Source: a virus
Lineage: Duplodnaviria; Heunggongvirae; Uroviricota; Caudoviricetes
Direction: 5' to 3' (one strand)
Length of the DNA stretch: 5,927 nt
IMG/VR virus record: IMGVR_UViG_2698536458_000009
Below are positions 36 to 5,823 of the stretch, piece by piece; position 1 is the stretch's first letter; every line of letters begins with the position of its first letter. The position numbers and the translations under genes are program-made. Below the pieces are notes generated by a model, which did no database searches, was not told where the DNA came from, and saw nothing but the letters and a program-made list of their open reading frames with translations.

Positions 36-458
36 TCACAGTACCGCCTCCTGAAAATCACCCTGATAGAAAGCCGGTACACGCTGCATAACTTCACTCT
101 TCCGGCACTCGCGACAGATTATGTTCTGATGTCTGTCGTAGCGGCGTATTTCTCCGTCCGGTAATGACCAGATAAGGTCCGGATCAACCACAGATGGTTT
201 CTTCAGCTTTGCCCTCGAGAGTTTTTTGCGGGCGTTTTGCCAGTCCTTACGAGCCTGTTCAGACGGGAATAACCCGTAGCCAGAGTTGTATACATCCCCA
301 CTGGCAACCAGCTCTCTGGCGAGAACGCTTATTAAATATCTTGTCGCCCCGGTTTTAGCTTCCAGTTGTCGTAACGTCTCGCGCCCACTCTGGCGTACGA
401 GTTCAACAACCTGCCCCTTAATTTTTTCCCGCTCTTCCTGTGTAAATACTTTTGCCAT
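36..458 (-). CDS. Hypothetical phage protein, about 140 aa, with a C-terminal CxxC motif (CRECRK); function unknown
   Basis: Complete ORF (track 36..473, whose first codon is TTG). The in-frame ATG at 458..456 (MAKVFTQEE...) is preferred because a G-rich stretch (ccgggggcgctt) precedes it. Stop of the upstream gene is at 474..476, so the two genes are tightly packed. No family recognised by eye. Confidence 0.55.
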   Translation of the reverse strand: MAKVFTQEEREKIKGQVVELVRQSGRETLRQLEAKTGATRYLISVLARELVASGDVYNSGYGLFPSEQARKDWQNARKKLSRAKLKKPSVVDPDLIWSLPDGEIRRYDRHQNIICRECRKSEVMQRVPAFYQGDFQEAVL

Positions 459-473
459 AAGCGCCCCCGGCAA

Positions 474-3082: not shown

Positions 3083-3153
3083 ACTCACCTCTTCTGATAC
3101 CGAATCTTTTTACTCACGAGTTGCCGGGAGCGATTCGATATGGCTATTGTCAG

Positions 3154-3579
3154 TCAATGTACTGCCACAGCATTTCCTGCCGGGCCACCACGGTTCATCT
3201 GATTGAAACCGGCGATTGCCACTGCGACAAAATCATCAGCGTCTCTCACCAGTCGTTCATGCGTCTCCACCAGTTCCCGAAAATAAGCTGAACTGTGGCT
3301 GCGCATTCGAGCCACCAGCGGAGGTGGCATTGCCCTTTCGATCGCAGGTAACAACGCCTGAATTTTTTCAACAGCGTCAGGGGTGTCTTTATCCAGCCAA
3401 CGGAAAATCTTTTGGGTGTTGAGATAAAGCGTGTTGTGCTTGCTGTCGTTATGCAGAACCGGAAACGTCATTCCCAGTTCGAAATAAACCCTGGTTATTT
3501 CAGCTGCCGGAACTTTTTCACCGTCCGGATGCGCCCAGGCTTTCATCGCCATGCGGATGTGTTCATGCTTGATTTTCAT
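3154..3579 (-). CDS. YdaT-family protein (lambda CII-position analogue; annotated in some genomes as a toxin), 141 aa
   Basis: ATG at 3579..3577 overlaps the stop of the upstream cro-like gene (ATGA overlap). N-terminal MKIKHEHI and overall size match my recollection of Rac YdaT; the family call is from memory, not a search. Confidence 0.6.
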   Translation of the reverse strand: MKIKHEHIRMAMKAWAHPDGEKVPAAEITRVYFELGMTFPVLHNDSKHNTLYLNTQKIFRWLDKDTPDAVEKIQALLPAIERAMPPPLVARMRSHSSAYFRELVETHERLVRDADDFVAVAIAGFNQMNRGGPAGNAVAVH

Positions 3580-3839
3580 GAATCAACCCCCGCCGATGGT
3601 TGTGTGTTAGCCTGAAACTCAGCAGGCAAGCCGTCAGTTGGGTTGGGGTAGGTTTTACTGTCAATCTCATGTGGGGTCACCACCCATCCCGTTGCTTCAC
3701 ACCAACGTAATATTTTTTCTCCTGTAAGTTTTGCACGCCCCGTTATAACGTGGCTGACCATCCCTTGGGATGCGCCAACAATCTCAGCAAATGAACTCTG
3801 GGTTATATGAAAATGATGCAAATATTCTCCAAGATTCAT
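3576..3839 (-). CDS. Cro/YdaS-like HTH DNA-binding protein (lytic-side repressor), about 87 aa
   Basis: HTH-like segment QSSFAEIVGASQGMVSHVITG. Divergent from the repressor gene across an AT-rich intergenic region. The ATG at 3839..3837 has an agggcgga purine-rich stretch just upstream and is preferred over the track's ATG at 3866 (MVTHHIGRI extension), which has no RBS. Stop TGA at 3576..3578. Confidence 0.7.
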   Translation of the reverse strand: MNLGEYLHHFHITQSSFAEIVGASQGMVSHVITGRAKLTGEKILRWCEATGWVVTPHEIDSKTYPNPTDGLPAEFQANTQPSAGVDS

Positions 3840-3950
3840 AATCCGCCCTATGTGATGTGTTACCAATGCATAATTAATAGCACTGTTATTTTTAAAAGTA
3901 AATAGTGATGCTATTTCAAAGTGATTAGCAATCTTATTAGAATTGGATGT
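3840..3950. promoter_or_regulatory. Divergent promoter/operator region between the cro-like and repressor genes
   Basis: About 110 bp, AT-rich, non-coding, between divergent HTH genes. Repeated partial palindromes: AATAGCACTGTTATT (3876..3890) and AATAGTGATGCTATT (3901..3915), both of the form AATAG-N5-YTATT and 25 bp apart centre to centre. TAGCA/TGCTA occurs three times and AGTGAT at 3904 and 3920. No -35/-10 hexamers could be assigned confidently. Confidence 0.5.
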
Positions 3951-4451
3951 ATGAAAAGAAAATCATTGTCAGACACCGACCTCAACGCCGCCAGAAGACT
4001 GAAAGAAATCTGGATGGCAAAGAAATCTCAGTTGGGATTGACTCAGGAACGTGCGGCGGAAATTATGGGGTTTTCAACACAAGGGGCGGTAAGTCACTAC
4101 CTAAATGGTCAAACCCCACTAAACCTTGAGGCTGTTCTAAAGTTTGCTGGCTTACTGAAAGTTCCCCCTGAGTCAATCAGGCCAGACATGGTAGATTTGC
4201 TGCAAATTGCAAGGATGTATTGTCGAGAACCACAGCAAGATAACATAGTCGCATTACCAGCAGACACAGAACAAACAGAGGATGAACTACCGTTTGCCGT
4301 AGAGCCGATGGAACGAGATTTAATCCATACGTTCAGAGCTTTTCCGAAAGAAGATCAAGAACACATGCTTCAGGAGATGAAAGATAAAAAAGAATCAATG
4401 GATCGTACGGTTGCGCGGTGGTTAGCTGCACAAAAAGGCCGTCGCGCCTAA
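3951..4451 (+). CDS. paaR: HTH (Cro/C1-type) transcriptional repressor, PaaR-like (ParE-associated regulator); candidate prophage repressor lacking a LexA/S24 peptidase domain
   Basis: HTH segment LGLTQERAAEIMGFSTQGAVSHYLNG. First gene of an operon with the PaaA-like and ParE genes, and divergent from the cro-like gene. The ATG at 3951 (MKRKSLSD...) is preferred over the GTG at 3921. The C-terminal part shows no Ala-Gly cleavage site or Ser/Lys dyad region by eye. The paaR symbol is inferred from operon context. Confidence 0.7.
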   Translation: MKRKSLSDTDLNAARRLKEIWMAKKSQLGLTQERAAEIMGFSTQGAVSHYLNGQTPLNLEAVLKFAGLLKVPPESIRPDMVDLLQIARMYCREPQQDNIVALPADTEQTEDELPFAVEPMERDLIHTFRAFPKEDQEHMLQEMKDKKESMDRTVARWLAAQKGRRA

Positions 4452-4470
4452 ATCAGAGGAGATATGTAAA

Positions 4471-4665
4471 ATGAGTACAGTCCTTTCCCCAATGGTTTCA
4501 GAATTTGAGACAGTTGAGCAAGAAAATAGTTACAACGAATGGCTGCGGGCCAAAGTAGCAGCAAGCCTCGCGGATCCCCGCCCGGCGATTCCGCATGATG
4601 AGGTAATGGCGGAAATGGAACAAATTATTGCCCAAATTGCTGCTGCAACTCACAGAGGTGAATAA
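4471..4665 (+). CDS. paaA: PaaA-like antitoxin (ParE-associated antitoxin), 64 aa
   Basis: ATG at 4471 with AGAGGAG 9 nt upstream. The stop TAA (4663..4665) overlaps the ParE ATG (TAATG). The segment SPMVSEFETVEQENSYNEWLRAKVAASLADPRPAIPHDEV closely matches my recollection of E. coli O157 PaaA2; this was not verified by alignment. Confidence 0.8.
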   Translation: MSTVLSPMVSEFETVEQENSYNEWLRAKVAASLADPRPAIPHDEVMAEMEQIIAQIAAATHRGE

Positions 4666-4955
4666 TGTTACCCGTTTTATGGCTACCATCTGCTCGTGAT
4701 GATTTGCGCCAGATCGTAGCCTACATAGCTAAAGAAAATCCCGCGGCAGCACGCAGAATGAAAATTCGAATTGAAACATCCGTTTTGCCGCTCACAGAGC
4801 ATCCTTACCTGTATCCTCCAAGCGAGCGAGTTCTTGGTCTTCGTGAAATTGTAACTCATCCTAACTACATCATCCTTTACCGAGTAACAGCATCAAGCAT
4901 AGAAGTAGTAAATATTGTGCATTCTCGAAGACAGTATCCAGGCAAAAACAGTTAA
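4665..4955 (+). CDS. parE: ParE/RelE-superfamily toxin (ParE-like), 96 aa
   Basis: The ATG overlaps the antitoxin stop, with AGAGGTG 4 nt upstream. ParE-like sequence features: N-terminal WLPSARDDLRQIVAYIAKENPAAARRM and C-terminal REIV...YIILYRV...IEVVNIVHSRR. Stop TAA at 4953..4955. Confidence 0.85.
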   Translation: MLPVLWLPSARDDLRQIVAYIAKENPAAARRMKIRIETSVLPLTEHPYLYPPSERVLGLREIVTHPNYIILYRVTASSIEVVNIVHSRRQYPGKNS

Positions 4956-4971
4956 TTATTCCCGCCGACAG

Positions 4972-4996
4972 AACCACCTTAGGGTGGTTTTTTCTT
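4972..4996 (+). terminator. Putative intrinsic (rho-independent) terminator downstream of parE
   Basis: Stem AACCACC (4972..4978) pairs with GGTGGTT (4983..4989) around loop TTAG, followed by a T-tract (4990..4993, then ctt). It begins 17 nt after the parE stop. Confidence 0.6.
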
Positions 4997-5007
4997 GCCC
5001 CAACAAA

Positions 5008-5115
5008 AAACAATAGCNNNNNNNNNNNNNNNNNNNNNNNNNNNNNNNNNNNNNNNNNNNNNNNNNNNNNNNNNNNNNNNNNNNNNNNNNNNNNNNNNNN
5101 NNNNNNGCTATTGTT
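5008..5115. repeat. Perfect 10-bp inverted repeat (aaacaatagc / gctattgttt) directly abutting both ends of an 89-nt masked segment; unknown palindromic or small element
   Basis: Left arm 5008..5017 and right arm 5107..5116 are exact reverse complements. N-run 5018..5106 lies between them. Confidence 0.4.
5018..5106. other. Masked/undetermined bases (89 N)
   Basis: Run of N in the supplied sequence; content unknown. Confidence 0.99.
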
Positions 5116-5293: not shown

Positions 5294-5446
5294 ATGGATA
5301 CTATCGATCTTGGCAACAACGAATCTCTGGTGTGCGGCGTGTTCCCTAACCAGGATGGAACGTTTACCGCCATGACGTATACCAAAAGCAAAACGTTTAA
5401 AACCGAATCTGGCGCGCGTTGCTGGTTAGCCAGAAACACTGACTGA
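5294..5446 (+). CDS. Small hypothetical protein, about 50 aa (MDTIDLGNNESLVCGVF...)
   Basis: The track ORF 5240..5446 has no RBS at its first ATG. The in-frame ATG at 5294 has GAGG 5 nt upstream (aaatGAGGtcagcATG). Stop TGA at 5444..5446. No family recognised. Confidence 0.45.
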   Translation: MDTIDLGNNESLVCGVFPNQDGTFTAMTYTKSKTFKTESGARCWLARNTD

Positions 5447-5457
5447 TGAGGCTGACG

Positions 5458-5823
5458 ATGGAATTTAAAGATTTACCGTCTGATGTACAGAAAACAGCAG
5501 CTCATACATTGCATTCTGTGCTGCGAGAAATCGGGAAAGATATTGCAAGCGAGCCAGCAAAAGATCTGGCCCGGAAAATCAAGACCGCTTTCGTTGAGCT
5601 TTATAATGTTGGCACTGACTCTGAAACTGTCGAGACCAAGACCGTAAGTTCACCAATATTCTCACTTGAGCCAAGCGTATTATCAGGTGAAATATGCACC
5701 GAGATTTCCAGCGAACTGCTTCCGGTAATACGAGAAGCAATTCGCCGTCGCGGTTTGGATGGAAGTTATGATCATGACGTTCTGCAAGTTCTCAGGACAA
5801 TGGTGACTTCACTGGGGATTTGA
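5458..5823 (+). CDS. Hypothetical acidic protein, about 121 aa (MEFKDLPSDVQKTAAHTL...)
   Basis: The ATG at 5458 has GAGG 6 nt upstream (tgatGAGGctgacgATG). The track's alternative ATG at 5446 overlaps the previous stop (TGATG). No family recognised. It is in the position of early-left genes of a lambdoid phage. Confidence 0.55.
   Translation: MEFKDLPSDVQKTAAHTLHSVLREIGKDIASEPAKDLARKIKTAFVELYNVGTDSETVETKTVSSPIFSLEPSVLSGEICTEISSELLPVIREAIRRRGLDGSYDHDVLQVLRTMVTSLGI

Follow-up and report, generated by a model that had tools for sequence, protein, structure and literature searches.

The closest described relative of the locus treated here is paaR2-paaA2-parE2, an operon of the cryptic prophage CP-933P in Escherichia coli O157:H7 that was studied by Jurenas et al. 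(2021; PMC8630535). In earlier work, PaaR was taken as the third component of a tripartite toxin-antitoxin (TA) system (Hallez, 2010, as summarised in PMC4803016). In CP-933P, PaaR2 is the functional counterpart of lambda CI "despite lacking sequence similarity," and YdaS and YdaT are the analogues of Cro and CII, not a TA pair (PMC8630535). The paaR2 transcript is leaderless like that of cI. Between the divergent promoters PRM and PR, PaaR2 and YdaS bind operators that overlap, both also repress the PL promoter beyond the TA pair, and YdaT activates a PRE-like promoter (PMC8630535). The site recognized by YdaT, TTGATT-N6-AATCAA, was mapped to the ydaS/ydaT junction (Prolic-Kalinsek et al., 2023; PMC9986795). 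PaaR2 is without a RecA-dependent peptidase domain, PaaA2 is degraded by ClpAP and ClpXP, and the locus is bistable, shows post-segregational killing and stabilises an unstable plasmid (PMC8630535). We found no literature on function newer than these publications. Here we compare this system with a paaR-paaA-parE operon at positions 3951-4955 of a 5,927-nucleotide (nt) stretch of DNA, the IMG/VR virus record IMGVR_UViG_2698536458_000009 (hereafter the window).

This region very probably represents the immunity core of a defective lambdoid prophage (Qin/Rac type) of Shigella sonnei, in which PaaA-ParE is carried as cargo in the master-repressor operon. A sequence-only reading of the window had proposed that the TA regulator occupies the prophage-repressor slot and that the TA pair is wired into the lysogeny switch. 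The neighbourhood agrees with this placement: paaR diverges from the cro-like ydaS and the cII-like ydaT, the replication genes lie beyond these, and ydfA...dicB lie on the other side. Neither a related, more complete E. coli prophage (L001, see below), taken as a whole, nor the 10 kb around the locus in S. sonnei has a further repressor of cI-like or S24 type annotated. Predicted operators at both OR and a PL-like promoter also fit the proposed wiring. The interpretation is therefore supported, and it had already been published for CP-933P (PMC8630535); a TA pair within an immunity switch is not new here. What appears to be new, from sequence comparison and structure modelling, is a heteroimmune copy in which a lambda-cI-homologous head sits on a PaaR/DicA-type tail.

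PaaR (3951-4451, plus strand, stop codon TAA at 4449-4451) has 166 amino acids (aa). It comprises a lambda-cI-like helix-turn-helix (HTH) head at residues ~1-91, a disordered linker at 92-113 and a helical C-terminal domain of PaaR/DicA type at 119-164. The protein matches Pfam HTH_3 (8e-09), and residues 2-81 match the N-terminal domain of lambda cI in phmmer at 3e-09, with 40% identity over 80 aa. A basic N-terminal arm is common to both proteins (MKRKSLS in PaaR, STKKKPLT in lambda cI). The AlphaFold model of PaaR contains five helices at 8-91 (predicted local distance difference test score about 90), disorder at 92-113 and a helical hairpin at 119-164. In a Foldseek search with this model, the best 11 PDB matches were all lambda cI N-terminal domains (template modelling score 0.84-0.93, root-mean-square deviation 1.0-2.3 A). 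A PDB sequence search with PaaR likewise returned only lambda cI and no PaaR2 structure. By sequence and modelled fold alike, the N-terminal domain of PaaR is truly homologous to the DNA-binding domain of lambda cI.

The tail of the protein leads elsewhere. Residues 106-162 match the NCBIfam DicA model (PRK09706) at 7e-08 and 32.4 bits, below the curated cutoff of 101, and there is no full-length match to this subfamily above the cutoff. Comparison with PaaR2, which the sequence-only reading had named as the relative to look for, supports that kinship for the C-terminal 44 aa (52% identity, E = 5e-15) and for these alone; the N-terminal domain does not align. The C-terminal helical domain presumably mediates oligomerisation. 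Pfam gives no Peptidase_S24 match for PaaR at E <= 0.01. Classical SOS induction is not expected, since PaaR has no S24/RecA-cleavable C-terminal domain.

The ydaS-paaR intergenic region is 111 nt long with a G+C (GC) content of 29.7%, in agreement with the earlier description of an AT-rich, operator-like region dividing the operon from a cro-like gene. Three predicted operators fall within it. O-a (3876-3890, AATAGCACTGTTATT), the OR1-like site, matches the motif AATAR-N5-YTATT exactly and overlaps the -10 of a PR-like promoter. O-b (3901-3915, AATAGTGATGCTATT), the OR2-like site, is also an exact match. O-b sits at the heart of a perfect palindrome of 17 bp (3900-3916), which shares positions with the PR-like -35 and directly adjoins the PRM-like -35. 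O-c (3924-3938, ATTAGCAATCTTATT), the OR3-like site, has one motif mismatch and lies within the PRM spacer and -10. The operator centres are 25 and 23 bp apart. In lambda, the corresponding OR spacings are 24 and 23 bp.

The motif recurs on the far side of the TA pair. In the 41-kb prophage L001 there are four exact copies against 0.19 expected by chance, two at OR and two at OL, the latter just past the parE terminator and overlapping a PL-like promoter. In the window, the predicted OL/PL region (5012-5112, plus strand) is mostly hidden by an 89-N mask at 5018-5106, with AATAGC and GCTATT left at the mask edges. The unmasked OL of S. sonnei strain 53G (L013), whose flanks are 100% identical to the window, consists of AATAGCGATGCTATT, 11 nt and AATAATGATGCTATT. 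The PL-like promoter, TTTACA-18-TATTGT, is directed towards ydfA, and it and the PR-like promoter stand in the same register relative to the operators. The informative query in these comparisons is the arm-only motif; a search with the full 15-mer (AATAGTGATGCTATT, <=3 mismatches) was discarded, as it gave one site in the window, which is at chance level (one or more matches in 26/200 shuffles).

Three OR sites at 25/23(24) bp are present in 7/7 loci whose repressor has the lambda-cI-like head, and AATAR-N5-YTATT sites at OR or OL are found in 0/4 loci with other heads (CP-933P, the second O157 copy L002, L003 and Qin). Two exact OL sites lie downstream of the cargo in 6/7 of the lambda-cI-like-head loci, L017 being without exact copies, and OL in these loci coincides with a PL-like promoter. 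The operator arms are conserved across loci and the central 5 bp vary. The motif thus covaries perfectly with the DNA-binding domain, and PaaR is predicted to bind it. A tripartite OR over divergent PR and PRM together with a distant OL at PL is accordingly present as a prediction from motif statistics and covariation.

The PRM-like promoter (3915-3943, plus strand) reads TTCAAA, 17 nt, TAGAAT and scores 9/12 in a consensus scan. Between its -10 (3938-3943) and the A of the paaR start codon lie 7 nt. When six divergent OR regions were aligned, the invariant features were the operator arms, a TA(G/A)AAT -10 and an ATG 6-7 nt downstream. No conserved Shine-Dalgarno sequence between the -10 and the ATG was found in this six-locus alignment. 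Because the -10/ATG spacing is invariant and without a conserved Shine-Dalgarno sequence, the paaR mRNA is probably leaderless, as published for paaR2 and lambda cI. A PR-like promoter is tentatively assigned from the sequence to the minus strand at 3874-3902, with -35 TTTACT (3902-3897), 17 nt and -10 TATTAA (3879-3874).

At the other end of ydaS, the predicted YdaT operator (OM equivalent; 3569-3586, TTGATTTTCATGAATCAA) covers both the stop codon of ydaS and the start codon of ydaT. It is an exact match to the published 5'-TTGATT-N6-AATCAA-3', for which 0.41 sites are expected by chance at <=2 mismatches. The site is present once per locus, at the same junction, in CP-933P (L004) and in L002, L005 and L011-L014.

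The three genes of the operon are co-directional, with the 19-nt gap and the TAATG overlap that had been described, as the open reading frame (ORF) list and the raw sequence both confirm. Between paaR and paaA lies a 19-nt spacer (4452-4470). The antitoxin gene paaA (4471-4665, plus strand) encodes 64 aa and ends in TAA at 4663-4665. The toxin gene parE (4665-4955, plus strand) encodes 96 aa, and its ATG (4665-4667) shares its A with the paaA stop, which suggests translational coupling. A ribosome-binding site had been claimed before each gene. The claim stands for paaA (GAGGAG, 4456-4461, 9 nt upstream) and parE (GAGGTG, 4655-4660, 4 nt upstream) and fails for paaR, where only a GGA lies between the TAGAAT -10 hexamer and the ATG. 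The terminator noted after parE is an intrinsic one at 4970-4996 (plus strand), a hairpin at 4970-4991 followed by a U-run. It was overlooked by the consensus promoter/terminator scan and confirmed by RNA folding (-15.1 kcal/mol, z = -2.96). No terminator lies between paaR and paaA by sequence reading, scan and folding, and the one after parE is the only one of the unit. From the gap and the terminator, paaR-paaA-parE is predicted to be co-transcribed as one operon.

The assignment of the pair to the PaaA and ParE families also held when checked against Pfam and PDB. PaaA matches Pfam PaaA2 (PF21217) at 3e-23 (82 bits; cutoff 27) and the PaaA2 structure 3zbe at 1.4e-23. ParE matches Pfam ParE_toxin (PF05016) at 1.8e-17 (64 bits; cutoff 23) and aligns with the ParE2 structure 5cw7 at 6.7e-37, full length and gap-free. 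Pfam shows no HTH or ribbon-helix-helix (RHH) match in PaaA, which is thus without a DNA-binding domain. Measured against an 80%-identical E. coli lineage, the ratio of nonsynonymous to synonymous substitution rates (dN/dS) is 0.05-0.09 for paaR, paaA and parE (0.05 for paaA and 0.05 for parE), values that are approximate because dS is near saturation at 1.2-1.4. All three genes are, by this measure, under strong purifying selection.

The regulator sets the locus apart from CP-933P. The reference copy, from strain EDL933 (L004), has the same order of ydaT, ydaS, divergent paaR-paaA-parE and then OL/PL. Identity to its proteins is 75% for PaaA, 67% for ParE, 77% for YdaT and 52% for the PaaR C-terminal domain. 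The exact YdaT site at the same junction, a -10 placed for a leaderless paaR and the lack of an S24 autocleavage domain are shared as well. The two loci differ in the N-terminal head, which is unrelated in sequence, in the length of the regulator (166 aa in PaaR, 123 aa in PaaR2) and in the host element, in the present case a remnant at the Qin locus of S. sonnei. No similarity was detectable between YdaS and CP-933P YdaS. At the DNA level, similarity to L004 and L002 stops at ~3590-3650 (the ydaS 3' end) and resumes at ~4324-4386 (the paaR 3' part). The immunity-specific segment therefore comprises the heads of ydaS and paaR, the paaR linker and the operators. Since PaaR head, YdaS and operators all differ, a different immunity specificity from CP-933P would be expected. 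The exchange of such a segment is as in classical lambda/434-type heteroimmune hybrids.

O157:H7 has a second copy (L002), which, going by the literature, is presumably paaR1-paaA1-parE1 of CP-933M. This locus was considered as paaR2-paaA2-parE2 and rejected, as its proteins mismatch the PDB PaaA2 and ParE2 and the PaaR2 N-terminus (MQKKE); L004 is the true CP-933P reference. L002 has the toxin closest to ours (ParE 86%), with 77% identity in PaaA, 81% in YdaT and 56% over the C-terminal 64 aa of PaaR. It differs in that its PaaR (133 aa, MMSALEV...) has a head of another HTH type and its operators are of the AAAACTGT...ACAGTTTT type. This OR/OL repeat of its own is found at L002 positions 3464-3571 and 4540-4575, with a TTGACA embedded at the L002 PL. 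Each PaaR head type thus seems to have a private operator set, a pattern consistent with heteroimmunity.

Relatives of 240-255 aa (proteins P0013-P0023) are tandem double-HTH repressors, in which the same lambda-cI-like head is followed by a complete PaaR1-type protein (second HTH and tail). Their genes lie at 5001-5735 in L007, 4001-4768 in L015 and 3269-4000 in L019. The 166-aa PaaR resembles this form minus about 78 aa, the second HTH. The OR regions of the double-HTH loci show only the AATAR-N5-YTATT set, and no second operator set matching the PaaR1-type HTH was obvious in these loci. The tandem proteins are possible intermediates of head swaps.

The interval between the repressor stop and the terminator/OL is variable among the relatives. 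In the window and S. sonnei, the 166-aa PaaR is followed by paaA-parE. In the Salmonella loci L017 and L018 (154-aa repressor P0025), the interval holds a HigB toxin gene and an HTH gene (higBA; L017 4612-5339). In L007-L009 (244-aa P0018), it holds HipA_2 and DUF3037, which match the PADLOC candidates PDC-M66A/B (L007 5787-7360), and in L019 (243-aa P0022) an uncharacterised overlapping pair of 150 and 98 aa (4093-4841). L015 and L016 (255-aa P0020) have a hairpin only, and nothing lies between dicA and ydfA in E. coli K-12 Qin (L010, 3343-3508). As seen across these loci, the repressor-operator unit is independent of the TA pair, and the slot is in the same topological position as lambda rexAB, so that the positional analogy to rexAB drawn in the sequence-only reading holds.

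That reading had also pointed to the AT-richness of the block as a sign of moron-like acquisition. The composition itself is as described: 45.5% GC in paaR and 45.4% in the TA pair vs 51-55% in ydaT, the O-like and dnaC-like genes and DUF1627. As a sign of horizontal acquisition it was rejected as non-specific. Because ydaS (47%), ydfA (48%) and orf125 (45%) are low too, low GC marks the early-left and immunity segment as a whole and is not a trait of the TA pair. The variable content of the slot supports a moron reading far better than base composition does.

The comparison with lambda extends beyond the PaaR head and the spacing of the three OR operators. OL/PL again lie beyond a cargo pair and terminator, the repressor is probably leaderless, and the cro-like and cII-like genes are divergent. 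PaaR differs from lambda cI in having no S24 domain, the operator sequences differ, the cargo is PaaA-ParE instead of RexAB, the role of cII is held by YdaT, an unrelated protein, and neither cIII nor N was identified in this locus. With the DicA-DicC region of Qin in E. coli K-12, the locus shares its chromosomal neighbourhood and its layout, which in K-12 is dicC, divergent dicA and then ydfA-ydfB-ydfC-dicF-dicB. Its ydfA is about 90% identical in DNA, and the PaaR C-terminal domain matches the DicA profile. Qin has no TA cargo between dicA and ydfA, and the DicA N-terminal domain and operators differ. Canonical ParD-ParE systems have in common with this locus a ParE-family toxin and an upstream antitoxin gene with overlapping stop and start codons. 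Here, the antitoxin is of the PaaA2 family without an RHH domain, and transcription would be controlled by a separate phage-type repressor.

We propose that PaaR acts as the cI analogue, its head binding the three OR operators and two more at the PL-like promoter past the TA terminator. Bound PaaR would shut off PR (ydaS, ydaT, replication genes) and PL (ydfA...dicB) and would control its own weak PRM, the source of the paaR-paaA-parE transcript. The cro-like YdaS would compete at the same operators. The cII-like YdaT, acting at the ydaS/ydaT junction site, would drive a PRE-like back-up transcript of the operon. PaaA would neutralise ParE by direct binding. Given the instability of the homologue PaaA2, ParE would be set free whenever the locus is lost or replaced, which would make the immunity region addictive. 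The gene order, family membership, operator motifs with their covariation, purifying selection and variable cargo slot in this scheme come from the sequences compared above. Its repression logic, leaderless translation, bistability, PaaA lability and addiction are carried over from the CP-933P homologue. Experimental support for addiction or stabilisation is from that homologue only (PMC8630535).

Several points weigh against this model. The PaaR2 operators are four 18-bp repeats with a GTTTAGTAA consensus, and those here are three 15-17-bp AATAR-N5-YTATT palindromes; because of this difference, the extrapolated regulatory logic rests on architecture and not on sequence. The -10 of the PR-like promoter (TATTAA) is poor, and the consensus scan did not find this promoter. 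The selection estimates come from a nearly saturated dS. In CP-933P, ParE2 activity was seen in neither state of the switch (PMC8630535). Finally, what is left of the element in S. sonnei carries IS1 insertions in its PL operon, and this remnant may no longer depend on parts of the circuit.

The same damage raises the idea that the module is an inert relic whose genes have stayed intact by chance in a decaying S. sonnei prophage. Integrase, Q, lysis and structural genes are indeed absent within 10 kb. Set against this are the exact PaaR protein in about 6000 blocks of an assembly collection, the 100% identity of the window among independent S. sonnei genomes, the low dN/dS of all three genes, and operators, -10 hexamer, terminator and YdaT site that are all intact. 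We therefore consider an inert relic quite improbable. Even less credible, and in our view very improbable, is that PaaR is a dedicated TA transcription factor, a "split antitoxin" beside which the cro- and cII-like neighbours are incidental. PaaA is without a DNA-binding domain, so a regulator must supply one, and Hallez (2010) took PaaR as the third TA component, in the summary given in PMC4803016. The same head and OR/OL sets nevertheless occur where the cargo is unrelated or a TA pair is missing altogether (L015, L016). The OL/PL operators, placed as they are past the TA terminator, would control a different operon, K-12 Qin has the homologous dicC/dicA-ydfA layout without a TA pair, and PaaR2 represses PR and PL experimentally (PMC8630535).

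A different weighting of the cargo is that PaaA-ParE serves mainly in the exclusion of phages or in abortive infection, as a functional counterpart of rexAB. Shut-off of host or prophage transcription by an infection, or repression of PRM by a heteroimmune Cro-like protein, would then lead to PaaA decay, and ParE would kill the cell before the phage cycle ends. The pair fills the repressor-OL/PL interval as rexAB does, related loci hold other toxin- or defence-type pairs there (higBA in L017, HipA_2 and DUF3037 in L007, the overlapping pair in L019), and PaaA2 is degraded by ClpAP/ClpXP (PMC8630535). By this analogy, PaaA-ParE may act in superinfection exclusion, as the sequence-only reading had also suggested. 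As a primary function we consider it unlikely: no PADLOC model matches PaaR, PaaA or ParE, and Pfam and PADLOC searches of the three proteins gave no RexA/RexB homology. The sole published phenotype of the homologue is post-segregational killing with plasmid stabilisation, and activation of its ParE2 was seen in neither switch state (PMC8630535).

The window is 100% identical to S. sonnei chromosomes (e.g., strain 53G, L013) outside its runs of N, and the exact PaaR protein carries a Shigella sonnei annotation. In these chromosomes, the element is a short defective prophage remnant at the Qin locus, scarred by IS1. It begins with an IS1 copy and a restriction-modification gene pair, followed by DUF977, DUF1627, dnaC-like, O-like, ydaT and ydaS. 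It continues with the divergent paaR, paaA, parE, ydfA, a 121-aa ORF, IS1 copies, a Rha-type gene, dicB and ydfE. No integrase, Q, lysis or morphogenesis/structural genes are found within 10 kb of the locus. In L013 (1685-5501 and 11961-14670), IS1 bounds and interrupts the remnant, and IS1 copies part ydfA and orf121 from the Rha-type gene and dicB. The restriction pair, which adjoins the replication genes, consists of a BsuBI/PstI-type restriction endonuclease and an N6-methyltransferase/Eco57I-type gene.

A far more complete prophage, from integrase through tail genes, is present in E. coli FDAARGOS_944 (L001), and its immunity/TA module is 99.4% identical. The window shows a mosaic boundary at ~3153 and leftwards. 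Positions 3153-5017 align at ~95% with two E. coli prophages (L001 and L006), to which the core 3576-5010 is 99.4% identical. The replication modules differ: L006 has a DnaT-like gene and P, L001 has a "DNA-binding protein" and an ECs1072-family gene, and the O-like/dnaC-like/DUF1627 module of the window matches O145 and O157 prophages instead (86-95%).

Relatives of paaA-parE are present in 842 of 5426 complete E. coli genomes, and the present paaR type is full-length in only 72. The identical PaaR protein was found in about 6000 indexed blocks, of which 74 include megabase-scale contigs. In a phage genome collection, the sole match is partial (24% coverage, Escherichia phage Evi), and so there is no evidence for the module in a sequenced free phage. 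An Rfam search of the window gave no match.

Comparison of their flanks with identical S. sonnei genomes (L013) indicates that the runs of N in the window are padded masks and not gaps of true length. The 87-N run at 1878-1964 corresponds to 65 nt in L013. The two flanks of the 15-N run (2087-2101) overlap in L013 by 7 nt, which leaves little or no sequence under the mask. The 89-N run at 5018-5106, which covers the OL/PL operators, corresponds to 29 nt. ORFs called across these runs are artefacts, and the true start of the dnaC-like gene is the ATG at 1989 (248 aa).

Of the neighbouring genes, ydaS (3576-3839, minus strand; start ATG 3839 taken from the RefSeq annotation of L001 and L006) encodes a cro-like HTH regulator. 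It matches PHROG 35, "transcriptional repressor," at 8e-17 and Pfam HTH_3 at 20.5 bits, below the cutoff. The cII-like activator gene ydaT (3154-3579, minus strand) matches Pfam YdaT_toxin (5e-09) and PHROG 163, "CII-like transcriptional activator" (3e-40). The label "toxin YdaT" in RefSeq and Pfam is a misnomer, the protein being a cII-like DNA-binding activator that is not toxic (PMC8630535, PMC9986795). The minus-strand neighbours beyond ydaT encode an O-like replication initiator, a DnaC/IstB-like loader, DUF1627 and a DUF977/Ren-like protein. The DUF977 ORF (36-473, minus strand) matches PHROG 142, "Ren-like exclusion protein" (2e-46), and is a possible further exclusion-type moron downstream of the replication genes.

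On the other side, ydfA (5294-5446, plus strand; Pfam DUF1391, 3e-28) is the first gene of the PL-driven early-left operon, which leads to dicB in S. sonnei and relatives. A 125-aa ORF (5446-5823, plus strand) follows, with a match only to PHROG 33007 (unknown function) and none in Pfam or NCBIfam. It stands where L001, L006 and Qin have ydfB and ydfC.

The main addition of this locus is a well-annotated S. sonnei example of an established principle. It provides the first link, at the level of sequence and of predicted fold, between a PaaR-type regulator and lambda cI, and its predicted operator set has lambda-like geometry. Immunity specificity in this family could shift by swapping of DNA-binding heads onto a constant PaaR/DicA-type tail. 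A broader idea, which we regard as rather doubtful, is that paaA-parE and the alternative pairs in the slot are a rexAB-like guard against phages or recombination, wired to the repressor promoter. If this were true, silencing of PRM/PRE, whether caused by an infecting heteroimmune phage, by exchange of the immunity region or by shut-off of the host, would trigger ParE via PaaA decay. The slot between repressor and OL is a recurrent landing site for toxin- and defence-type gene pairs, which supports mining it for new defence systems.

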